Positions 45,713 to 62,498 are shown, numbered from the stretch's first letter. The stretch is 64,000 bases of DNA from Porticoccaceae bacterium (GCA_049615345.1 JBMZFJ010000003.1:22859-86858); one strand, 5' to 3'. Numbers and translations: made by a program. The notes: generated from the letters alone by a model not told the origin.

Positions 45713-48130
<2,418 letters not shown>

Positions 48131-48148: not shown

Positions 48149-49234
48149 TCAACCTTTAGAAAATACACCATGTTCCACATGGAACATTTGGCTTAACTTT
48201 TCATCTATTCCATCAAAATCTTTTTTATCCACACCAGTAACAAAGTACTGACATTGCAAATGATCTAAATACGCTAACACATCTTTCCGATTTTCATAAT
48301 CCAACTCTGCAGGCAAGTCGTCAAGTAAAAATACACAACTAAGGCCTGTTGCAGACTGGTAATGTGCTGCTTGTGCCAGCTTCAAGGCATACACCAATAG
48401 CTTGGACTGCCCTCTCGACAGGCTATCTGCCGCGGCAACACCATCAACAAACACCTTTATATCTGCACGCTGCGCGCCATGAGAGGTAGTACCCGCAGCA
48501 ATATCCCTCTCTTTATCAGCCAGCAGCACATCAATAATAGAGCTGCCCTCCGGCCAGCCCTGGCTGTACTCTAAACTAACCGCGCCTAGGCCGCTAAAGG
48601 CGTCAACTACCGGACTTATAAATTTTTGCAGCTGTAAAATATACTCTTTACGCTGCTCAGCAATCATCTCATTTAGCGGCGCCAATTCCCGAGACCATAG
48701 CTTTAGTAATTCTTCGTCTATTCTACCATGACGAAGCAGTTGATTGCGCTGTTTTAATGCTTTTTGAAAGCGACGCCAAAGATCAGAATAACCATGTTCC
48801 ACGTGGAACACACCCCAGTCTATAAATTGACGCCTTTGCAATGGACCACCCTCTAGTAGCGAAAAGCTATGGGCGTCTACTAATTGAATAGGTAGCTCAG
48901 AAGCTAGTTGACCTGCTGAAGATAGATTTTGTCCGTCACAGCGGGCCTCAAAGCCGCCCTTAACGGAACGCATAACCCCTAACTGATGCTCGGTATTGGA
49001 GCTAGGTCTTGCAACCTTGCCAGACACAACCAAACTGTCTTGCCCCCTATTAACGACTAGGCGCAAATCGCGATGCTTGAAAGATCTTCCTCTACCGAGT
49101 AAAAAGATTGACTCTAACAGGCTAGTTTTACCACTGCCATTAGCCCCATAGATAATGTTGGCCTTGGGGTGGCAATCTACACTCACTGATACAAGATTGC
49201 GTACCTTAGAGATATCTATACTACTTAAAAACAC
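48149..49234 (-). CDS. recF: DNA replication/repair protein RecF
   Basis: GANGSGKT, RGRSF, LSRGQSK, LLDDLPAELD. Confidence 0.96.
   Translation of the reverse strand: MFLSSIDISKVRNLVSVSVDCHPKANIIYGANGSGKTSLLESIFLLGRGRSFKHRDLRLVVNRGQDSLVVSGKVARPSSNTEHQLGVMRSVKGGFEARCDGQNLSSAGQLASELPIQLVDAHSFSLLEGGPLQRRQFIDWGVFHVEHGYSDLWRRFQKALKQRNQLLRHGRIDEELLKLWSRELAPLNEMIAEQRKEYILQLQKFISPVVDAFSGLGAVSLEYSQGWPEGSSIIDVLLADKERDIAAGTTSHGAQRADIKVFVDGVAAADSLSRGQSKLLVYALKLAQAAHYQSATGLSCVFLLDDLPAELDYENRKDVLAYLDHLQCQYFVTGVDKKDFDGIDEKLSQMFHVEHGVFSKG
48171..48186. other. parS site (1 mismatch) inside recF
   Basis: TGTTCCACATGGAACA versus Pseudomonas-type TGTTCCACGTGGAACA. Confidence 0.85.
48795..48810. other. parS site (perfect) inside recF
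   Basis: TGTTCCACGTGGAACA palindrome; parAB present in the window. Confidence 0.92.
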
Positions 49235-49266
49235 TTACAGGGCCCAAGCAAGCCAGGTGCGCCACT

Positions 49267-50370
49267 CTAGAGGCGCATCGGCATAACAACATAGGTTGCC
49301 TTACTCTCTCCACTAGCGTCCTCAACCAGCGCGCTGCTATTGGAATCAGCCAGTGTAAAGCGTATTTCTGGGCACTTTAAGACATTCAGCACATCGAGCA
49401 GATAACTGACATTAAACCCTATTTCCAGTGTATCTCCAGAATAGGCCACGCTAACTTCTTCCTGTGCTTCCTCTTGTTCTGGGTTATTTGCCACCAGATG
49501 CATAGCACCATTCACCAGCTCAATTCTAACGCCGCGGTATTTTTCATTGGAAAGGATAGCTGTGCGACCAAACGCCTGCTTCAGCTGCTCTCGATCACCA
49601 ACAACTAACTTATCGCCTCCCTTGGGAACCACTCGATCATAATCTGGATAAGAACCATCAACCAGTTTAGACGTAAAGCAGTAATCTGCGCCAGTGACTC
49701 TAATATGGTTAGAGCCAATTGAAACTCTGACCTCATCATCAGCTAATAGCCGAGAAAGCTCTATAATGCCCTTGCGCGGCAATATAGCAGAGACCTTGGA
49801 ATCGTCTAGGGAAACATCGCAATGGCCGTCACACAGCGCTAGGCGATGGCCATCGGTGGCAACAACGCGCAACTGGTTGTGGGTTACCTCCCAAAGCATG
49901 CCGTTTAAATAATAACGAACATCCTGTTGTGCCATGGCAAATGCAGTGGACTCAATTAGCCCTCTTATCATGCTGCCTGGCACATTAAATTGAACCGTCT
50001 GCTCTCCCTGATCAACGCTAGGAAACTCGTTGGCTGGAAGTGTTGCCAGGGTAAAACGGCTGCGACCACTAACAATTTGAGCTTTTCCTTCACTGCTAGA
50101 AAAATCCACCTGCGCCCCATCGGGAAGAGAGCGACATATATCCAAAAATTTTCTCGCAGAAACAGTCACTTCGCCCGCCTCGGTAGAGGAAACCACCTCG
50201 GTTGAACCCTTTATTTCTACCTCGAGATCGGTACCAGTCATTGACAGCTGAGTGCCCTCAAGGCGCAACAACACATTAGAAAGAATAGGTAGTGTTTGCC
50301 TGCGCTCCACTACACCCACCACTAACTGCAAGGGGTTGAGAAGAGCTTCTCGAGAAAGGCTGAATTTCAT
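49267..50370 (-). CDS. dnaN: DNA polymerase III beta clamp
   Basis: QTLPILSN, QQDVRYYLNG, ATDGHRL, YVVMPMRL. Confidence 0.98.
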   Translation of the reverse strand: MKFSLSREALLNPLQLVVGVVERRQTLPILSNVLLRLEGTQLSMTGTDLEVEIKGSTEVVSSTEAGEVTVSARKFLDICRSLPDGAQVDFSSSEGKAQIVSGRSRFTLATLPANEFPSVDQGEQTVQFNVPGSMIRGLIESTAFAMAQQDVRYYLNGMLWEVTHNQLRVVATDGHRLALCDGHCDVSLDDSKVSAILPRKGIIELSRLLADDEVRVSIGSNHIRVTGADYCFTSKLVDGSYPDYDRVVPKGGDKLVVGDREQLKQAFGRTAILSNEKYRGVRIELVNGAMHLVANNPEQEEAQEEVSVAYSGDTLEIGFNVSYLLDVLNVLKCPEIRFTLADSNSSALVEDASGESKATYVVMPMRL

Positions 50371-50413
50371 GATGTTAATTCTCCGGAAATAAAATTTATT
50401 CTAATTGTAACGA

Positions 50414-51883
50414 TTAGGTTGAAAGGGTGCGGTAAAGATTCTTCAGATCGCGCTGAACTTCTCTATCTGCGCCCTCAAGTTCTTTAACTTTTCTACAGGC
50501 ATGCAAAACAGTCGTGTGATCGCGACCACCAAAGGCATCACCAATCTCAGGCAAACTGTGGTTTGTTAACTCTTTAGCAATAGACATAGCCACCTGTCGC
50601 GGTCTTGCCACAGAGCGACTGCGACGACGTGATAGCAAATCAGACATCTTCAATTGATAATAGTCTGCAACCACGCGCTGAATATTATCCACCGTTATCA
50701 ACTTATCTTGTAGGGCTAAAAGATCTTTGAGCGACTCTCTAATAAGGTCAATATCAATTGGGCGCCTAGTAAATTGAGCATGTGCCATTACGCGTTTAAG
50801 CGCGCCCTCAAGCTCGCGCACATTGGAGCGAATACGCTGGGCAATAAAGAAGGCCGCATCCTTGGATAAATGCACACCACTCTGCTCAGCTTTGTTGATA
50901 AGGATTGCCGCTCTAGTCTCGAGCTCCGGCGGCTCTACAGCAACCGTTAAACCCCAGCCAAAACGCGACTTAAGACGCTCCTCAACACCGTCAATTTCTT
51001 TCGGATAACGGTCACTGGTGAGAATCATCTGCTGACCGCCTTCTAATAAGGCGTTATAAGTATGGAAAAACTCTTCTTGTGAGCGCTCTTTACCAGAGAA
51101 AAACTGAATGTCATCAATCAGTAGCGCATCAACTGATCGGTAAAACCGCTTAAACTCGTCAATAGCCTTAAGTTGCAGCGCCTTTACCATATCAGCCACA
51201 AAGCGCTCGGAATGAAGGTAAACAATTTTAGCATCGGGCTTTTTAGCGCGTAGAGCATTACCCACAGCGTGCATCAAATGGGTCTTACCAAGACCTACAC
51301 CACCGTATATAAATAACGGATTGTATGAACCACCAGGGTTTTCAGCTACCTGCTGAGCCGCAGCAAACGCCAGTTGGTTTGATTTGCCTTCAACAAAACT
51401 ATCAAAGGTAAATTCATTATTAAGATTAGTTCTTAGGCTAGTTTCAGCCGCAGATCGGATGATAGCTGGCGCTTCAACTGGAGCAGCATCTATATTGCTT
51501 GGGTTTTGAATGATTGCAGGCGTTTCAGCGCTTGACGGTTCAGAACTTGAGGGGCTAGAAACAAATTCAGACTGTTGTTTGTACTGCGGAGCATTCGCAG
51601 GAGAAGCAGAAATGCCTAAAACCACGCCATTGCCACTAAGCTGATGAAACAACTCTTCGATACGATTAAGGAACTTACTCTTAACCCAGTCCTCAACAAA
51701 TCTATTGGGCGCCAACAATTCGATTACATCGTCATTAGACGGATCATTAAAGCGTTCGTTATCAGCATCAAAGTACTTAAGCTTCAGTGGACGAATCCAT
51801 GTATTGTATTGCTGTTCAGGCAATTCGTTTTGCAGTTGGCTTTGGCATTGTGACCAAACAATTTCGGGTGCTTCAAACCCCAT
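50414..51883 (-). CDS. dnaA: Chromosomal replication initiator
   Basis: [34 protein letters not shown]. Confidence 0.98.
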
Positions 51884-52257
51884 GATTTGTACCTTATAAG
51901 ACGTTAAAACTGGTTGCTAAAATATGATTTCCACAACAACCAAAATTTGGTTTAAGTGGTGAGCTTTTTTATCTCACTTTTTACAGAGTCTATACCCTGC
52001 AAAAAAAACTATCCACACCTCAAAAAACAGGGTAAAAAAACCATAAAAATAAATTACCATAAAAATCAACATGTTATATATTTTCAAGAAATTTATTATC
52101 AACAGCCGCAAAAAAAAATCTGGTCATATTTTGACCAATTATTGTGGATAACCTGTGAATATACGGTAAAAAACCCGTGGTTAACGAGAAATAATGCAAA
52201 TCTGTAGCAGAATTATTAAAGCTGACTAGCTTATGGTGACCAAAAACTTTTTGTTAG
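51884..52257. other. dnaA-proximal origin/regulatory region (DnaA boxes + IHF site)
   Basis: Boxes ATTTCCACA 51927, CTATCCACA 52009, TTATCAACA 52096, TGTGGATAA 52143 (perfect), TGTGAATAT 52154, CGTGGTTAA 52176; IHF-like AATCAACATGTTA 52064-52076. Confidence 0.8.
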
Positions 52258-53643
52258 TCACTTTCCAATACAGAATGATGAAAAGATAACGCCCAATAAA
52301 TCATCAGACGTAAATTCTCCTGTGATTTCAGATAGATAGCGCTGTGCCTCACGTAAATCCTCGGCCAGCAATTCACCGGCATTGGCAACCTCTAATTGTT
52401 CAATACCGTGACACACAAGATCGGTTGCCTTATTAATTGCACTAAGGTGACGGCGGCGAGCAGAAAAAACCCCCTCTGCCAGTTCTTTATAGCCTACCAC
52501 CCTAAGAATTAGCTGTTTTAGACTGGACAGGCCGGCGCCGGTTTTGGCTGAAACGGCAATTGACTTATCTGCTGATGAAAACGCGCAAGCGCTTTCTGGC
52601 ACAAGATCTAGCTTATTGAAGATACTGATAATATTGTGTTGTTTATCGGGAAATCGTTGAAAATACTCTGGCCACAGATCTTCAAGAGGCTCTTTATCCT
52701 GATTAGTCGCATCAACCACATAAAGTATGGCATCGGCCTTTTCAATTTCACCCCAAGCCCTTAAAACACCCTGCTGCTCTACTACATCCTCTGTCTCGCG
52801 CAACCCTGCAGTATCGACGATATTTAATGGCACACCGTCGAGATTAATCTTTTCTCTTAGGACATCTCTTGTGGTGCCCGCTATATCAGTAACAATAGCT
52901 GCATCTTGGCCGGCAAGCGCATTTAACAGGCTAGACTTGCCCGCATTGGGTTTTCCCGCCAAAACCAGGGTAATGCCCTCCCTCAATAAAGCGCCTTGCT
53001 CGGCGGTAGCTAAAAAAGCCTTTAAATCAGCGCGCAACATTGTAAGCTTATTTCGCAAGGCGGTGTCCGCCAGAAAATCGATCTCCTCTTCAGGGAAATC
53101 AATAGCCGCCTCAACAAATACGCGGATAGAAATCATTGTTTCAACAAAATCACGAATCTTGCTGGAAAACTCGCCCTGAAGTGACCGCATAGCTGACTTT
53201 GCCGCTTGAGTTGAGCTGGCATCAATAAGGTCTGCTACCGCTTCGGCTTGCGCTAAGTCGAGCTTATCATTTAAAAAAGCTCTCTCACTAAACTCACCCG
53301 GTCGAGCGAGCCGCGCACCCAGCTCAATACAACGGTTGACCAAACAATCTAAGACTACGGGTCCGCCATGGCCATGCAGCTCCAACACCTGTTCACCGGT
53401 AAAAGAGTTGGGGGCTGGGAATGACAAGACTAAACCCTGATCAATAACCGCGTCATCCGCATCATAGAACGAGGCATAGTGGGCCTGCCTCGGTTTAAGT
53501 ACTTTACCCGAGCTTAGAAGGCCATCAATATGGGCCGATAGATCAGCCCCTGAAAGGCGAACAACACCAACACCTCCTCGCCCTGGTGCGGTGGCAACAG
53601 CAACTATAGTATCTGTATTATTCTGTAAATTATCATATGTCAT
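52258..53643 (-). CDS. mnmE: tRNA modification GTPase MnmE
   Basis: [27 protein letters not shown]. Confidence 0.97.
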
Positions 53644-53659
53644 AGGGATATTATGCCCG

Positions 53660-53686
53660 AAAAAAAAGCCTCCTAAGAGGCTTTTT
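53660..53686 (-). terminator. Terminator after yidC
   Basis: AAAAAGCCTC-CTAA-GAGGCTTTTT; U-tract on the minus strand. Confidence 0.8.
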
Positions 53687-53687
53687 A

Positions 53688-55346
53688 TTACTTCACGGCT
53701 GCAGCAATCTGTCGATTAACATACCACTGTTGCAAAATACTCAATAAATTATTAACCGTCCAATACAGCACCAAACCTGCCGGGAACATCATAAAGAAGA
53801 ACGTAAAAACAACTGGCATTAACTGAAATACTTTAGCTTGCATAGGATCGGTAGGTGCTGGCTGCAGTTTTTGCATCAAAAACATACTCGCACCCATAAT
53901 TAATGGAAGAATAAACAATGGATCTTTCGCAGAGAGATCCTGAATCCAAATAATCCAAGGTGAGTGACGAATTTCAACTGATTCAGATAACACCCAATAT
54001 AGAGCGATAAACACCGGCATCTGCAATAACATCGGGAAGCAGCCACCCAATGGATTAACCCGATGCTTCTTAAATAGCGCCATCTGTTCTTGACCCGCCT
54101 TTTGACGGTCATCGCCATACAATTCTTTGATTCTTGCCATCTCCGGCTGCAGTGTTCTCATTTTAGCCATCGATTTAAGGCTAGCCGCGGACAATGGATA
54201 AAGTAGTATTTTAATAAATATGGTTAGTATGATTATCGACCAACCCCAATTGCCCAAAAAGCCCTGAATTATCTGCAAGGCGGCAAAAATAGGCTTAGCT
54301 AACATCCATAAAAAGCCATAATCGATGGTTAGATCTAGATACTCAGATAACTCTTGAAGCACATCTTGATTCTTAGGCCCAACATAAAGATCGACCTTAT
54401 ATTCCCCTGTTTGACCGGGTGATACATTGATTTTCTCACCGGTTACTGCCATTAAATAAATATCATTGCCCTGAAGTTTTCGCAAAGAAAAACGGTTTTT
54501 ATCATCCTGAGGTGGAACCCAAGCACTCACAAAATAATGTTGAACAAACGCTAACCAGCCGCCCTGCAATGATGTTTTAACGGTCTTATCGTCGATATCA
54601 GAGAAATCATATTTCGAATAATTCTTATCTTGCTCGCGAATCGCTGCGCCCAAGAAGGGCTTCATCCCAGTTGAAGAATCGGTTTTAGGTTGATGGGAAT
54701 CTCGTCTAAACTGACCAAAAAACGTAGCAGACCAAGGCTCTGAAGAAAGGTTTCTAACAATATAGCGGATACCAATTTGATATTGCGCAGCCTTAAACTC
54801 AAAGCGTTTAATAATTTCGACGCCACCCTGATTGTAAACAAAGTCAACATCTAACCTTTGTTGACCATCGGCAAGCTCATAAGTGTTAGCTGTGGTTGAA
54901 AAAACAGGTCTTCCAGCAGCCGTGTCTGTGCCGTTAGCACCTATCAAACCACTTTCAGCAATAAATTCATTACCATTGGAGCGCGTAAAAATAGAGATAG
55001 GCTGACCACCTTCGTCCGCCATCTTATCTAAGTTTTGCAATAATTGAGTTTCAACAACATCGCCACCCAAGGTATCAATGGTTACCTTAATCACATCGGT
55101 AGTAATGGTGACGGTTTTTTGATTATCTACTAATAACTTCGTTTGCTGAGGCTGATCATCCACCAAAACAGGTAAAGTAGAACTGGAAGACGCTCTTTCA
55201 TTGTAGAGCTGCTCAACGGGCATCTGTGGCTGCTGATCTGCAACAGGTAAGCTGTCAAACTGAGCTTCAAAACCACTCCATCGCACGACAAGCATCCAAA
55301 CAACAACACCAATTGCGGCTAAAATTACGTTTTTTTGCCAGTTCAT
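53688..55346 (-). CDS. yidC: Membrane protein insertase YidC
   Basis: [32 protein letters not shown]. Confidence 0.97.
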
Positions 55347-55350
55347 ACTT

Positions 55351-55602
55351 TTATCTCTCAGTTTTATCTATAGTCAATGGTTTTTCTTGCTTTGAAGGTA
55401 CAGGATCATGCCCACCTTCATGTAAAGGGTGGCATTTTATAATTCTTCGCACAGAAAGATAACCCCCCTTTAATACACCGTACTCACTAATTGCCTCGAT
55501 TGCATAATGAGAGCAGGTAGGGTGGAATCTACAACTTGGCCCTAGAAGTGGACTTATAAGGTATTGATAAGCCTTAATAAGGCCAATAAACAGGCTACGC
55601 AC
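55351..55602 (-). CDS. yidD: Membrane protein insertion efficiency factor
   Basis: [33 protein letters not shown]. Confidence 0.94.
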
Positions 55603-55978
55603 CCTGCCGGTCCAGCATCTTACATCGCGAGTCTAGCTTTGCCCACGACTTTTCAATAATAGCTGTAAGCTTTTGGGTAGAAAGCTTATCAGCTCCCTGT
55701 CGCGCCAAAAAAACAACATCTAAAGAACCTTGAAATTGTTTTTTTCTAAACGTTTCCCTCGCAACACGCTTAATACGATTGCGCTGGACAGCTGTAGGAA
55801 TATTTTTCTTAGCAACAACCAAACCCAACCGAGATAGACAACCATCAGTGGGTTTGGCGAGTAACAGAAGGGAAGAATTTGCGACCTTCACGCTGTTGTG
55901 ATCAAACACCTGCTTATAATCAGAGGCATTTAATAGGCGCTGAGTCTTTTTAAACGAGAATATGGGCACTGGGCCCAA
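55595..55978 (-). CDS. rnpA: Ribonuclease P protein component
   Basis: [19 protein letters not shown]; start may be GTG 55969. Confidence 0.93.
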
Positions 55979-55982
55979 TGCC

Positions 55983-56117
55983 TCAAGCAGCTAGACGCTT
56001 ACGACCCTTAGCACGACGACGGTTAATAACCGCGCGTCCACCGCGAGTAGCCATACGTGATCTGAAGCCGTGAGTGCGCTTACGCTTTAAATTACTGGGT
56101 TGAAATGTTCTTTTCAT
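55983..56117 (-). CDS. rpmH: 50S ribosomal protein L34 (missing from ORF track)
   Basis: Hand translation: [44 protein letters not shown]. Confidence 0.98.
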
Positions 56118-56156
56118 TGCCTAAAAATCCAAATAGGTTCGTGTACATGTTTCCGA

Positions 56157-56193
56157 GCCGCGCGATTCTAAAGAAATTACCGACGTATATCAA
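56157..56193 (-). promoter_or_regulatory. rpmH sigma70 promoter
   Basis: TTGATA (56193-56188), N17, TAGAAT (56170-56165), GC-rich discriminator CGCGCGGC. Confidence 0.75.
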
Positions 56194-56679
56194 TAAACTT
56201 CTGCAATCATTTGCAAATCAGTGTTTAATAACAGGCTATTAACAAGCTATAAATAGTATAAACAGCCAAGTATTCAATTTTTAGTCGGTTTTTACCCATA
56301 CAGTCAGCGTATTGATAAGAAACTGTACAAAACCTATTAATAACATCAAATAATACTCAGTTTTAATCTCGCTTATACAGGTTGTTTTAACTAACTAAAT
56401 TTAATCAACAATCCACCCCCATTTTTTAAGCAGCTATTCAAGCCTATTAACCCACTAACTGTACATGTTATTTTTTTATATAAGTGATTGATATTCATGA
56501 TTTTATTAAAGTAATAAACAAAAAATAGGCTTACTAATAACAACATTAATAATCTAACATATATATATTAAGTAAATTAATACTATATATATCTACAAAT
56601 AAAACGACTTAGAAAAAAATACAAAGCGGCGTATAATAGCCATAACTTCCCAAGGGCTAATACAGACTCAAGATTAAAT
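56194..56679. other. mnmG-proximal origin-like region (IHF site, AT-rich DUE candidate, degenerate boxes)
   Basis: IHF consensus TATCAATCACTTA (reverse complement of 56481-56493); very AT-rich 56461-56620; trio-like TTACTAATAACAACATTAATAATC 56531-56554; only degenerate DnaA-box-like 9-mers. Confidence 0.6.
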
Positions 56680-58548
56680 ATGCGTTATACCGATCAATTT
56701 GATGTCATCGTTGTTGGTGGTGGTCATGCTGGAACAGAAGCATGCCTGGCATCAGCTAGAATGGGCTGTAAAACACTTCTCCTCACTCATAACATTGAAA
56801 CACTGGGGCAAATGTCCTGTAACCCAGCCATTGGTGGCTTAGGTAAGAGTCACCTCGTTAAAGAAGTAGATGCCTTAGGCGGTGTTATGGCGAGAGCAAC
56901 TGATTTGGGTGGTATTCAATTTCGAGTGCTTAATGCCAGAAAAGGCCCCGCTGTAAGAGCAACCAGAGCGCAAGCCGATAGGGCGCTGTATAAAGCAGCG
57001 GTTAGAGGCTTTTTAGAAAATCAGCCAAATCTGAGTATTTTCCAGCAGGCGGTTGATGATCTTATTATTGAGGGTGAAAAGGTAGTTGGCGCATCCACCC
57101 AGATGGGGTTGAAGTTTTATGCTAAGACTGTGGTAGTCACTGCAGGCACCTTTTTGGCCGGTAAGGTACATATAGGAATGGAAAACTACGCAGCAGGACG
57201 TGCGGGTGATCCACCAGCAGAGCAACTAGCCCAGCGCTTTAGAGATCTACCTTTTAGAATTGAAAGATTAAAAACAGGCACTCCACCAAGAATTGATGCA
57301 CGCACTGTTGATTTTAGCGGTCTTCAAGAACAGTGGGGAGATCAACCAGAGCCAATAATGTCCTATTTTGGCAAGCTGTCAGATCATCCCAAGCAAACCT
57401 GTTGCTGGATAACCTACACCAACGAAAAAACCCATGATGTTATTCGTGGTGGCATGGATAGATCCCCCCTTTACACCGGTGTGATTGATGGTGTGGGCCC
57501 CAGATACTGCCCATCCATTGAAGATAAAGTGGTGCGCTTTGCGGATAAAGATAAGCATCAGGTATTTATTGAGCCAGAAGGTTTAAATACCCACGAGCTC
57601 TACCCTAATGGTATTTCAACCAGCCTGCCATTTGATGTTCAATTAAATTTAGTGCGCTCCATAGAGGGCTTTGAAAATGCCCACATTATGCGACCGGGTT
57701 ATGCCATTGAATATGATTACTTTAACCCACAAGATTTAAAATATTCTCTGGAAACTAAAACCGTACAGGGATTATTTTTTGCCGGTCAAATTAACGGCAC
57801 CACCGGCTACGAAGAGGCTGCCGCTCAAGGGTTACTGGCCGGTACCAATGCCGCTCTTCAAGCACAGGACAAAGACAGTTGGTGTCCAGGCCGTGATGAA
57901 GCCTATACCGGTGTTTTGGTGGATGATCTAATCAGTATGGGTACCAGTGAGCCCTACCGCATGTTTACAAGCCGTGCGGAATACCGATTATTGTTGCGAG
58001 AAGATAATGCCGACCTTAGGTTGACAGAAAAAGGCCGTGAATTAGGTTTGGTAACCGATAGTCATTGGCAGCTGTTCTGTGAAAAAAGAGAAGCCATTGA
58101 GATTGAACGCCAGCGAATAAAATCCACCTGGATTCAAGCTGACTCAAGCGAAGCAAAGCAATTGGAACCACTGTTTAAAAATAAATTAACACATGAGTAC
58201 TCCATGTATGATCTTCTGAAGCGACCAGAAGTTACCTATGCAGACTTATCAGGCCTGACTCCAGACTTAGAGATCGATAGCAAGGTGTCAGAGCAAATAG
58301 AGATTGATGCTAAATACGCAGGTTATATCGGGCGCCAACAAGAAGAGATTGATAAGTTGCGACGCCATGAGAACACCGTCATTCCTGAAACATTCGATTA
58401 TGATAAGGTCAGCGGTCTATCCAACGAGGTTAAGCAGAAGCTCAATGAAGCTAAACCAGAGACTCTTGCACGCGCCTCTAGAATCCCAGGCATAACACCT
58501 GCCGCTATTTCATTATTGTTGGTGTCTTTAAAGAAAAACGCAGCTTAA
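56680..58548 (+). CDS. mnmG: tRNA uridine-5-carboxymethylaminomethyl modification enzyme MnmG (GidA)
   Basis: [40 protein letters not shown]. Confidence 0.98.
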
Positions 58549-58550
58549 TT

Positions 58551-59195
58551 ATGTCGCTTCCCCATAACCAGCAAGCATTAGAGTTAGGGATAAAAACTCT
58601 CGGGCTAAGTTGTACGTCCCAGCAGGTAGAGCAGCTGCTGGCCTATCTTGAGATGCTTCAACGTTGGAATAAAGCTTACAACCTCACCGCTATTCGCGAA
58701 CCAATACAAATGGTTCGGTTACACCTTTTAGATAGCCTTGCTATAAATCCCTACGTGCAGGGGGTTAAACATATCATTGATGTCGGCACGGGTCCGGGTC
58801 TTCCAGGAATCCCATTGGCTATTTTAAATCCCGATATAAACTTCACCCTACTCGATAGTAACGGCAAAAAGACGCGTTTTTTATTTCAAGCAATTAACGA
58901 CCTATCCTTAGCTAACACCAAGGAAATCAATCACCGAGTTGAAAAATACGAGCCAGAGCAGTTATTTGATATTGTTTTAAGCCGCGCTTTTAGTTCTATC
59001 TCTGATATGCTTACTCAATGCGACCATTTGGTTTCTGATAGCGGCTGTTTTTTAGCGATGAAAGGAAAAAAACCCAATTCAGAGTTGAGCCAAATCACGA
59101 AAGATTATAAGGTCGTCAACCTGTCACAAATAAATGTTCCACAAGTTGACAGTGAAAGGCACCTAATAAAAATAACAAAAACAGGTGTGTCATAA
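58551..59195 (+). CDS. rsmG: 16S rRNA m7G527 methyltransferase (GidB)
   Basis: HLLDSL, DVGTGPGLPGIPLAI, SRAF, MKG. Confidence 0.96.
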   Translation: MSLPHNQQALELGIKTLGLSCTSQQVEQLLAYLEMLQRWNKAYNLTAIREPIQMVRLHLLDSLAINPYVQGVKHIIDVGTGPGLPGIPLAILNPDINFTLLDSNGKKTRFLFQAINDLSLANTKEINHRVEKYEPEQLFDIVLSRAFSSISDMLTQCDHLVSDSGCFLAMKGKKPNSELSQITKDYKVVNLSQINVPQVDSERHLIKITKTGVS

Positions 59196-59219
59196 TTTAG
59201 TTAAAGGAAACGCGTAACA

Positions 59220-60005
59220 GTGGCTCGGATATTATCAATTGCTAATCAAAAAGGTGGGGTTGGAAAGACCACTACCAGTGTCAACCTTGCCGCCTCTCTC
59301 GCCGCTTACAAAAAACGCGTCTTGCTTTTGGATCTTGATCCCCAGGGTAATACCACCATGGGGTCGGGCATCAATAAGCAAACCTGCGAACACAGCGTGT
59401 ACGATGTTCTCACAGAAAAAAAATCCATTGAGGACTGCATAGTCCCATCAGAGGCGGGCAAATATCATCTTCTACCAGCAAACGGCGACCTAGTTGCTGC
59501 AGAGGTTGAATTGATACAGGAAATTGGTCGAGAAACACGCTTAAGATTTGCCCTACAGCGGGTCGATGAAAACTACGATTATATTATTATTGATTGCCCG
59601 CCCTCACTCAATATGCTGACAGTGAATGCGCTAGTTGCAAGTGATGGAGTAATCATCCCTATGCAGTGTGAATACTATGCGCTTGAGGGCTTATCCGCAT
59701 TAAACAATACTATTCGGCAGATCGCCAAATTGATTAATCCTAAACTCAAAATTGAGGGCATTCTTAGAACCATGTACGATCCTCGCAATGGATTAACCAA
59801 TGCGGTATCGGCGCAACTTAGAAAATATTTTGGAGATGCTGTTTACCGCGTTAGCATTCCACGAAACGTAAGATTGGCTGAGGCACCCAGTCACGGCAAG
59901 CCAGCCCTAGCTTATGATAAAAACGCAAAGGGCTCACTAGCCTATTTAGCATTGGCCGGTGAGATATTGCGCAAACAACAAAATTCAACTGAGAATAAAG
60001 GATAA
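59220..60005 (+). CDS. parA: Chromosome partitioning ATPase ParA/Soj
   Basis: NQKGGVGKTT, DLDPQGN, DCPPSL, LAEAPSHG. Confidence 0.96.
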   Translation: MARILSIANQKGGVGKTTTSVNLAASLAAYKKRVLLLDLDPQGNTTMGSGINKQTCEHSVYDVLTEKKSIEDCIVPSEAGKYHLLPANGDLVAAEVELIQEIGRETRLRFALQRVDENYDYIIIDCPPSLNMLTVNALVASDGVIIPMQCEYYALEGLSALNNTIRQIAKLINPKLKIEGILRTMYDPRNGLTNAVSAQLRKYFGDAVYRVSIPRNVRLAEAPSHGKPALAYDKNAKGSLAYLALAGEILRKQQNSTENKG

Positions 60006-60011
60006 TAATCC

Positions 60012-60896
60012 ATGGCCACAAAAAGACAGAGCTTAGGCAAAGGGTTAGATGCGCTGTTGGGACTTGCAGAGGATATTAACCCAGATCAAGACTTGGCAAA
60101 GGGTGCAAAACCGGCATCCGATGGAGGCCTCAAGCAAATTCCAGTTGAATTTCTTCAGCGCGGTGAGTATCAGCCCCGAAGAGATTTTAATTCAGAAAGC
60201 CTACAAGAATTAGCCGATTCAATTGTTAATCAAGGCCTTATTCAACCCATTGTGGTGCGTGAAATAGCGCAGAATAAATACGAGATAATCGCCGGTGAAA
60301 GACGCTGGAGAGCGACACAGTTAGCTGGACTAGATACAGTGCCAGCCATTGTTAGAGAAATATCGGATCAAGCAGCCATTGCTATGGCTCTGATTGAAAA
60401 TATTCAACGTGAGGACCTTAATCCCATCGAGGAGAGTCAGGCCCTTATTCGCCTTCAGGATGAATTTAATCTTACACAACAGCAGGTAGCTGAGGCTGTT
60501 GGTAAATCCCGATCCGCCGTGACCAACCTTATGCGTTTGGCCACACTTCAGCCAGTTGTGCAGCAACAGCTAGAGCGCGGTGATATAGAGCTAGGTCACG
60601 CTAAGTGCCTTCTAGCACTTGAGGGTGAAACGCAAATCATAGCGGCACGCACGGTTGCCAGCGACGGGCTAACCGTTCGTCAAACCGAGGTATTGGTTAA
60701 AAAACTGCAATCGCCCGATACCGGTAAAAAATCCATTACCACACCTAACCAAGATATAGTTAATCTGCAAACTGAGTTATCTGAAAAGCTTGGTGCAGCC
60801 GTTAAAATTCAACATGGTTCAAAAGGTTCAGGCAAACTGACCATCAGTTATAACAGCGTAGATGAGCTTGATGGAATACTTAACCACCTAAAATAA
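60012..60896 (+). CDS. parB: Chromosome partitioning protein ParB
   Basis: LGKGLDALL, QPRRDF, GERRWRA, ENIQREDL. Confidence 0.96.
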   Translation: MATKRQSLGKGLDALLGLAEDINPDQDLAKGAKPASDGGLKQIPVEFLQRGEYQPRRDFNSESLQELADSIVNQGLIQPIVVREIAQNKYEIIAGERRWRATQLAGLDTVPAIVREISDQAAIAMALIENIQREDLNPIEESQALIRLQDEFNLTQQQVAEAVGKSRSAVTNLMRLATLQPVVQQQLERGDIELGHAKCLLALEGETQIIAARTVASDGLTVRQTEVLVKKLQSPDTGKKSITTPNQDIVNLQTELSEKLGAAVKIQHGSKGSGKLTISYNSVDELDGILNHLK

Positions 60897-60948
60897 CCTA
60901 AAAACACCAATAAAGTGTAAAATACTTTCTAAATTTCCTGTGCGTGTA

Positions 60949-60977
60949 TTGAATATCACGGATACTAAACCTATAAT
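60949..60977 (+). promoter_or_regulatory. atp operon sigma70 promoter
   Basis: TTGAAT-N17-TATAAT. Confidence 0.7.
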
Positions 60978-61047
60978 GCCGATCCGCGCCATTGTCGGTG
61001 ATCGATCTTGATCGCCTTCGGTTCGGAAAAGGTGGATTGAGAATACC

Positions 61048-61419
61048 GTGACAACCATTCCAAAGCCTGAATTACTGAAAGCAACCCTGTATCAAATAGC
61101 AGCTCTACTGCTAGTGGTGGCTTTTATCAGTATGACCGATAAATTAATGGCGGTTTCAGTTTTGATGGGCGGTTTAATTCAAATCCTACCCCAGGCTTGG
61201 TTCTCTTGGCAGGCCTTTAAATATGCCGGCGCGAGCAATGTGGATAAAGTTGTCCAATCCATGTATCGCGGAGAACTTGGAAAGGTTGTTATGACGGCAA
61301 CATTATTCGCAATTTTGTTTACCGTCGACAAACAGTGGAATTACATTGCATTGTTTACTACTTTTCTTTTAATGATACCGTTGCAATGGTTCTTAACCCA
61401 AAGGTCATTGCGGCACTAA
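61048..61419 (+). CDS. atpI: ATP synthase protein I
   Basis: Hydrophobic; YRGELGK motif; first gene of the atp operon. Confidence 0.85.
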   Translation: MTTIPKPELLKATLYQIAALLLVVAFISMTDKLMAVSVLMGGLIQILPQAWFSWQAFKYAGASNVDKVVQSMYRGELGKVVMTATLFAILFTVDKQWNYIALFTTFLLMIPLQWFLTQRSLRH

Positions 61420-61457
61420 CCAGACAGTTTGTTGGAATACAGAGTAGAGAATACTAG

Positions 61458-62498
<1,041 letters not shown>

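Follow-up and report, generated by a model that had tools for sequence, protein, structure and literature searches.

The DNA examined here is a window of 64,000 nucleotides (nt) from a Porticoccaceae bacterium (GCA_049615345.1, JBMZFJ010000003.1:22859-86858), read on one strand from 5' to 3' and numbered from its first letter. The element in question is the five-gene operon rpmH-rnpA-yidD-yidC-mnmE, which lies reversed between dnaA and mnmG. The gene order of the region is gyrB<recF<dnaN<dnaA<(Y)<mnmE<yidC<yidD<rnpA<rpmH<(X)>mnmG>rsmG>parA>parB>atp, where Y denotes the 374-bp dnaA-mnmE spacer and X the 562-bp rpmH-mnmG spacer (Table 1). Genes were identified with NCBIfam equivalog models scoring above their cut-offs; the exceptions are atpI and the ParA-family protein, for which the atpI model and the best ParA model fell below theirs. 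The inverted block of ~4 kb and the surrounding order, first proposed in a first-pass annotation made from the sequence alone, are confirmed by these model identities, and the interval given there for the block (52213-56198) takes in all five genes plus an intact rpmH promoter. The gyrB side continues with a plsC-like gene, glyS, and glyQ, and the mnmG side with rsmG-parAB-atp. Since both flanks keep the usual Pseudomonas-type order, only the rpmH-mnmE block is reversed. The placement of both breakpoints within the two origin-associated spacers is likewise supported. From rpmH to gyrB, ten genes form one co-directional array.

To place this order among relatives, an MnmE scan was run against one genome per GTDB species, and 10 kb was taken on each side of every match. 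An order was called canonical if dnaA was divergent from rpmH or if mnmG lay downstream of mnmE. The inverted order was present in every Porticoccaceae or Porticoccus genome recovered (n = 6), namely, four Porticoccus genomes (L003, L004, L008, and L012), a member of the Porticoccaceae HTCC2207 group (L002), and an uncultured Pseudomonadales metagenome-assembled genome (MAG; L001). In contrast, all ~65 other loci of this gammaproteobacterial survey that showed dnaA or mnmG beside the operon had the canonical order, including those of Pseudomonas, Halomonadaceae, Marinomonas, Microbulbifer, and Enterobacterales. A further contig, JBMYPY010000029.1 (GCA_049600795.1), encodes exactly the MnmE and DnaA proteins of the window and is colinear with positions 48531-61761 at 99.03% identity, spanning both junctions (13.2 kb). 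Between the window and its inverted-order relatives, MnmE is 57-62% and DnaA 65-78% identical, a divergence that places the inversion before deep splits within the family. The inversion is thus old and fixed across Porticoccaceae. A fixed lineage rearrangement was one of the alternatives raised in the first-pass annotation, and it proves correct; with the whole family sharing the order, the rearrangement is also of the lesser interest that the annotation had attached to an old event. No earlier report of the inverted order in Porticoccaceae or SAR92 was found in the literature searched. As a side observation, one canonical locus (L019, record CAYLRA010000008.1) is titled "uncultured Verrucomicrobiaceae" yet has a typical gammaproteobacterial dnaA-rpmH-mnmE-mnmG region with a 59% identical MnmE; the bin is probably mislabelled or contaminated.

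Table 1. Features of the dnaA-mnmG region, in window coordinates
Feature	Position	Strand	Basis or detail
gyrB	45713-48127	-	NCBIfam equivalog above cut-off
recF	48149-49234	-	NCBIfam equivalog above cut-off
dnaN	49267-50370	-	NCBIfam equivalog above cut-off
dnaA, first gene of the dnaA-dnaN-recF-gyrB array (to 45713)	50414-51883	-	TIGR00362, 597.6 bits
Spacer Y, putative dnaA promoter with DnaA-box operators and palindrome	51884-52257		Three boxes within one mismatch
Candidate dnaA promoter	51987-52017	-	Box CTATCCACA (52009-52017) overlaps -35-like TGGATA; 17 nt; -10-like TAGACT (51987-51992)
DnaA box TTATCAACA, one mismatch	52096-52104	+	Box scan
Palindrome TGGTCAAAATATGACCAG, then T9 run	52120-52137	-	Terminator-like match; between two DnaA boxes
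Perfect DnaA box TTATCCACA, 106 bp past mnmE stop	52143-52151	-	Core invariant in family alignment
mnmE, last in inverted block	52258-53643	-	NF003661, 436 bits
yidC	53688-55346	-	NF002352, 667 bits
yidD	55351-55602	-	TIGR00278, 90 bits
rnpA	55595-55978	-	TIGR00188, 62.8 bits; sister-contig gene call has start giving 124 amino acids (aa)
rpmH, first in inverted block	55983-56117	-	TIGR01030, 85.4 bits
Spacer X, putative mnmG-proximal origin-type region between divergent rpmH and mnmG	56118-56679		Sequence comparison
rpmH promoter TTGATA, 17 nt, TAGAAT	56165-56193	-	10/12 consensus; -35 56188-56193, -10 56165-56170
IHF-like site TATCAATCACTTA, fits WATCARNNNNTTR	56481-56493	-	C ~21-22 nt downstream of R1-type box; read from sequence
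R1-type DnaA box position, degenerate TGTTTATTA (two mismatches)	56512-56520	-	TGTGGATTA in 99%-identical strain L081
TGT repeats and DnaA-trio-like TAT-TAG-TAA, TGTTGTTATTAGTAAG	56530-56545	-	Conserved in family
AT-rich tract, candidate DNA unwinding element, adjoins mnmG promoter	56546-56605		40-bp windows of at least 87.5% AT span 56468-56605
mnmG promoter-like site TAGAAA, 16 nt, TATAAT	56610-56637	+	10/12 consensus; ATTATA conserved in family alignment
mnmG, first of mnmG-rsmG-parA-parB, then atp operon	56680-58548	+	TIGR00136, 914.7 bits
rsmG	58551-59195	+	NCBIfam equivalog above cut-off
ParA-family protein	59220-60005	+	Best ParA model below cut-off
ParB-family protein	60012-60896	+	Followed by atpI and atpB; atpI model below cut-off

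The two spacers were read against the framework described for Pseudomonadaceae and Halomonadaceae, which have two origin-type regions, oriC1 (<rpmH.oriC1.dnaA>) and oriC2 (<mnmG.oriC2) (Weigel, bioRxiv 10.1101/2025.08.05.668638; Wawrzyniak et al., PMC13438810). Each such region comprises a gene transcribed away from a DNA unwinding element (DUE), after which come a trio motif, an R1 box, an IHF site, and then box arrays, with the C of the IHF site ~21 bp downstream of R1; that the gene on the left flank is transcribed away from the origin is a rule reported for all confirmed origins (bioRxiv 10.1101/2025.08.05.668638). For a mnmG-proximal origin, an R1-type consensus DnaA box, TGTGNAWAA, is expected about two helical turns from the DUE.

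Spacer X is 71% AT and holds a tract of ~140 bp with at least 87% AT. Reading away from mnmG, all family members share the same succession: the mnmG promoter, the AT tract, the TGTTGTTATTAGTAAG module, an R1-type box in reverse orientation, an IHF match, further boxes, and the rpmH promoter. Within the window, mnmG transcription leads away from the AT-rich end, a DnaA-trio-like motif follows TGT between the candidate DUE and the R1 position, and the C of the predicted IHF site falls ~21-22 nt downstream of the R1-type box. Judged by sequence, X appears to have the left-part architecture of a mnmG-proximal origin. The degenerate R1-type box of the window has the place and orientation expected of R1. 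Near-consensus boxes occupy the R1 position in other family members (TGTGGATAG in L008, TGTCGATAA in L012, and TGTGGGTAA in L002), and TGTT variants of the R1-type box also occur in L005, L006, and L025. The rpmH promoter element TTTCTTTAGAATCGC is kept in all family members and resembles a motif upstream of Pseudomonas rpmH, while CA is invariant at the IHF-like site in the family alignment, including strain L081, where the site reads TATCAATAACTTA. As for box number, the window X has two boxes within one mismatch of TTWTNCACA; the Porticoccus X spacers (L004, L008, and L012) have 7 to 9 DnaA boxes, of which 1 to 4 are exact TTWTNCACA.

Similar modules occur outside the family. Upstream of mnmG, L025 (a Marinobacterium with the canonical order) carries a 16-mer identical to the TGTTGTTATTAGTAAG region of the window, and the canonical loci L066, L046, and L054 also match the X module there. 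The X module additionally resembles the oriC1-type modules of L006, L077, and L023. In the first of these, a canonical-order MAG of 38% GC, a DUE/TTATTAGCAAGCC/TGTTGATAA/IHF-like module very like X lies in the 769-bp rpmH-dnaA spacer (L006:4275-4345). Because of this similarity, oriC1- and oriC2-type modules are not separable by sequence.

Part of X varies between close strains. Over 13.2 kb, the window differs from L081 (99% identical) at 126 positions, and these are clustered, with ~50 of them in X: a stretch running from the R1 box to shortly beyond the IHF-like site (56458-56526) has 24 differences in 69 bp, and one close to the mnmG promoter (56608-56666) has 10 in 59 bp, while the DUE/TGT/trio part is nearly identical between the two strains. 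Other clusters lie in the parB-atpI spacer and atpI (40 differences, 61000-61499) and in recF (12 differences, 48500-48999). The clusters look like recombination patches or local hypervariability of noncoding DNA in the origin region.

Spacer Y is of a different kind. DnaA boxes within one mismatch are enriched in it, with 3 in 374 bp versus 30 in the 64 kb overall, and their distances from the mnmE stop (107, 154, and 242) are the same in six of the seven family members. The arrangement at the candidate dnaA promoter, a box over TGGATA followed by 17 nt and TAnAnT, also stands upstream of dnaA in the canonical loci L019, L054, L079, and L005. Between two of the boxes, most family members retain a palindrome with a 7-bp stem (TTGGTYA-N5-TRACCAA), in which covariation is slight; with the T run that follows it in the window, it may be an intrinsic terminator for the rpmH-mnmE operon or a protein-binding site. 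Y is best read as a conserved dnaA promoter/operator plus a possible terminator, rather than as an origin.

The direction of replication was assessed from nucleotide skew. Cumulative GC skew, which the first-pass annotation had proposed for placing the origin, does have its minimum at 56 to 57 kb, but this minimum coincides with the switch in gene orientation and so provides no independent evidence. For that reason, the replication signal was instead read from skew at third codon positions (GC3 skew), split by gene orientation. Left of 52 kb, the pooled coding-strand GC3 skew is +0.13 for minus-strand open reading frames (ORFs; n = 26) and -0.10 for plus-strand ORFs (n = 27). At third positions, the plus strand is thus rich in C for genes of either orientation, which corresponds to a replication signal of ~0.12. 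A single-feature classifier trained on the ORFs left of 52 kb (leave-one-out accuracy, 0.89) called mnmE (0.72), yidC (1.00), yidD (0.79), and rnpA (1.00) leading-like. Furthermore, each of the seven inverted genomes shows a difference of ~0 in coding-strand skew between the inverted block and the dnaA group. An origin at Y would predict a difference of about twice the replication signal, and equal skew is not expected after long replication from Y. In Porticoccus, the skew flips at X, between mnmG and rpmH. In L004, all genes to the left of X have negative plus-strand GC3 skew, and all those to its right, among them three opposite-strand genes beyond gyrB, have positive skew; L008, for which only the right side is available, is positive throughout.

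These data support the earlier proposal that the flipped operon is co-directional with the replication fork, in that its GC3 skew is leading-like, as is that of dnaA-gyrB, which puts the operon on the dnaA replichore, and the Porticoccus flip lies at X. The shift of the active origin put forward in the same annotation stays a conjecture, and no shift is needed, because origins next to mnmG, such as oriC2 of Pseudomonas and Halomonadaceae and the E. coli oriC, are both old and widely distributed. Two further observations concern skew. The first 52,000 nt of the window have no gene-strand bias (26 ORFs co-directional with the inferred fork versus 27 head-on, counting ORFs of at least 120 aa), yet their GC3 skew is ~0.12. 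Counts of FtsK-orienting polar sequences (KOPS) and Chi sites, along with skewed 5- and 6-mers, were not used, as the sites were too few and a 5-mer reversal right of X was confounded by gene orientation.

In all, the explanation we favor, with a probability of roughly three in four, is an old, fixed inversion that left X as an origin-type region and Y as a promoter/operator. A single ancient inversion of ~4 kb would have turned the rpmH-rnpA-yidD-yidC-mnmE operon around, promoter included, and become fixed in the common ancestor of Porticoccaceae. One breakpoint would lie between the rpmH and dnaA promoters, and the other would separate the 3' end of mnmE from the mnmG-proximal origin region. 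X would then keep a DnaA-dependent, mnmG-proximal origin module between the now divergent mnmG and rpmH, and the conserved promoter/operator of Y would now stand between mnmE and dnaA. A fork arriving from the mnmG side would run with, rather than against, the transcription of the rpmH-gyrB array, and the inversion may have been kept because a head-on conflict was removed. That X fires as an origin is well supported for Porticoccus and uncertain for the window species.

Several points weigh against this explanation. The breakpoints are not reconstructable base by base, as the spacers are too diverged. X can be assigned to the oriC2 type by position and orientation only, given that its module matches oriC1- and oriC2-type modules alike. 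To the right of R1, a DnaA box array is missing from the window X, none of whose boxes comes within one mismatch of TTATCCACA; the R1-type box itself is degenerate and differs between two strains that are 99% identical. The cumulative skew minimum, as noted, lends no independent weight. Finally, right of X in the window species, GC3 skew averages ~-0.06 over mnmG-atpH together with atpA-glmU on the overlapping contig L084, rather than the ~+0.13 expected for leading-strand genes, and 9 of the 13 right-flank genes were called lagging-like by the classifier.

The last of these points would be accounted for if, in the window species, neither X nor Y were active and replication started at a site over 16 kb rightward of X, such that the whole window is copied by a leftward fork and X and Y survive as promoter or regulatory regions. 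We regard this as unlikely, although it is the strongest competitor. A more specific version, in which the start is adjacent to neither dnaA nor mnmG, X has decayed, the atp operon is head-on to the fork, and both spacers are regulatory relics, seems slightly less likely again. Gene by gene, the plus-strand GC3 skew remains below zero to the right of X (mnmG, -0.09; rsmG, -0.08; parA, -0.18; atpB, -0.12; atpC, -0.15; and glmU, -0.25), and the left-minus-right difference of 0.20 is about three standard deviations above that of canonical loci (-0.015 +/- 0.07). The poor boxes of X and its polymorphic R1 box point the same way, and there is a precedent for keeping a mnmG-proximal origin-like region for promoter control in oriCII of P. 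aeruginosa, which serves gidAB-parAB (PMC13438810).

On the other side, the coding-strand GC3 skew of atp and glmU is also negative in L091, L092, L095, and L096, relatives without strong replication skew, so codon bias may hide a flip. Exact-protein look-ups and a GlmU metagenome scan added 8.5 to 10 kb of sequence to the right, along with several relatives, and no DnaA-box cluster, AT-rich tract, or skew flip was found in the 8.5 to 10 kb beyond atpH. In addition, the DUE/TGT/trio part and the IHF-like site of X are nearly unchanged between strains, and parS-like sites lie ~8 kb from X. A head-on atp operon, moreover, would be unusual.

Much less probable is that Y is the active origin, as an oriC1-type region next to dnaA, with the flipped rpmH operon then running head-on to the fork. 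In its favor, the region's best DnaA boxes are in Y, where their positions are invariant and an AT-rich stretch lies between them. Against this, the plus-strand GC3 skew of the block is ~-0.20, leading-like for a leftward fork, and in each of the seven inverted genomes it equals the skew of dnaA-gyrB; none of the seven shows a sign change at Y, and the skew of L004 flips at X instead. No match to the DUE/TGT/trio/R1/IHF module is present in Y in any family member, and mnmE, its left-flanking gene, is transcribed into Y rather than away from a DUE, contrary to the rule for all confirmed origins. The dnaA-proximal box, for its part, overlaps a promoter-like -35 element, as it does in canonical relatives. 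The boxes that the first-pass annotation marked next to dnaA are read here as part of a conserved dnaA promoter/operator and not as an origin.

Two explanations raised earlier that would deny a fixed inversion fare worse still. A reversible segment, present in both orientations in the population, is very improbable. Two short-read Logan contigs of the window species do stop inside Y (~52030-52203), L082 ending at 52203 and L170 beginning ~147 bp upstream of dnaA, which might reflect heterogeneity; low coverage or complexity explains these ends equally well and is their probable cause, so that they are no evidence of a second orientation. Convincing inverted or direct repeats were not found around the block, the best inverted pair being 28 nt at 71% complementarity in AT-rich DNA, and no recombinase or transposase gene was found nearby, the genes from 41.8 to 62.5 kb all being housekeeping genes. 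A scan for tRNA genes around the block gave none nearby, and an Rfam scan of 50 to 58 kb gave nothing relevant apart from a single subthreshold AsdA match inside dnaA. One orientation only is seen in the two strains of the window species and the six relatives, i.e., in eight independent genomes or contigs with MnmE identity down to 57%. A chimera of assembly or multiple displacement amplification can be dismissed, given that a MAG obtained independently from a different sample runs colinear through both junctions and six family genomes agree.

The favored explanation, an old inversion with an origin-type X, sets the locus beside several known systems. The dual-origin regions of Pseudomonas aeruginosa, other Pseudomonadaceae, and Halomonadaceae share with the window their genes and both origin-associated spacers (bioRxiv 10.1101/2025.08.05.668638; PMC13438810), as well as the flanking synteny (glyQS-plsC beyond gyrB and rsmG-parAB-atp beyond mnmG). 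The window X appears to match the DUE/TGT/trio/R1/IHF left part described for such regions, with mnmG transcribed away, and the dnaA-proximal box lies over a promoter-like -35 element as in Pseudomonas. Unlike the Pseudomonas type, the window has its rpmH-mnmE block reversed with rpmH divergent from mnmG, no oriC1-type DUE/R1 module next to dnaA, and very few consensus boxes in X. The oriC of E. coli K-12 (mnmG-oriC-mioC, with dnaA 42 kb away) resembles X in adjoining mnmG, with its AT-rich end on the mnmG side, and in having an R1-type box followed by an IHF-like site. Unlike oriC, however, X has no GATC cluster and no adjacent mioC, and in E. coli, the rpmH-rnpA-yidD-yidC-mnmE operon is divergent from dnaA and points toward oriC, head-on to its fork, while the window's operon is directed away from X.

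Rearrangements of the origin region have been described in Halomonas jeotgali, H. chromatireducens, and Zymobacter palmae (bioRxiv 10.1101/2025.08.05.668638, section 3.1). As in these Halomonadaceae events, the breakpoints here fall within or beside the rpmH-dnaA or mnmG-proximal spacers, and the order flanking the origin is changed. Those events, however, concern single genomes and other segments, whereas the window carries a clean rpmH-mnmE inversion that is fixed in the family. Origin-anchored inversions are a general class of bacterial rearrangement, with which the inversion in the window shares breakpoints in origin-proximal noncoding DNA and an outcome that leaves genes co-oriented with replication. 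It differs from this class in being very small (~4 kb) and asymmetric about the origin and in changing which operon is divergent from the origin. The locus stands apart in how a single operon, lying between the two classical spacers, is oriented, a state that is fixed across a family; the genes are ordinary, and the region would work like known mnmG-proximal origin regions.

Further observations were made at either side of the locus. The parS-like palindromes lie in recF (TGTTCCACGTGGAACA at 48795-48810 and the weaker TGTTCCACATGGAACA at 48171-48186, with ~0.2 expected by chance) and would mark the region as origin-proximal. Far to the right, two close relatives diverge right after a small gene downstream of glmU (L084:6969-9581 versus L083:6843-10517): one continues with a gene of 691 aa and 37-39% GC, and the other with an RpiR-like regulator and a UvrD-like helicase. 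In neither L084 nor L083 is glmS beside glmU, while L092 to L097 carry a glmS-sized ORF of 610 aa right after glmU.

The dnaA/rpmH/mnmG neighborhood is among the most conserved gene orders in bacteria and is widely used for finding origins, and Porticoccaceae constitute a family-level exception to it: here, rpmH is divergent from mnmG rather than from dnaA, with an origin-type module between the two. In this family, origin-prediction rules built on the rpmH-dnaA or dnaA-dnaN spacers would pick the wrong spacer. In practice, the gain is modest, consisting of improved origin annotation for a common marine clade that includes the HTCC2207 group, as well as a candidate lineage for studying origin choice. 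The family also offers a natural contrast to E. coli-type genomes, in which the operon stays head-on; in Porticoccaceae, a small inversion would have removed the conflict, which bears on the strength of selection for the replication-transcription orientation of a short essential operon.

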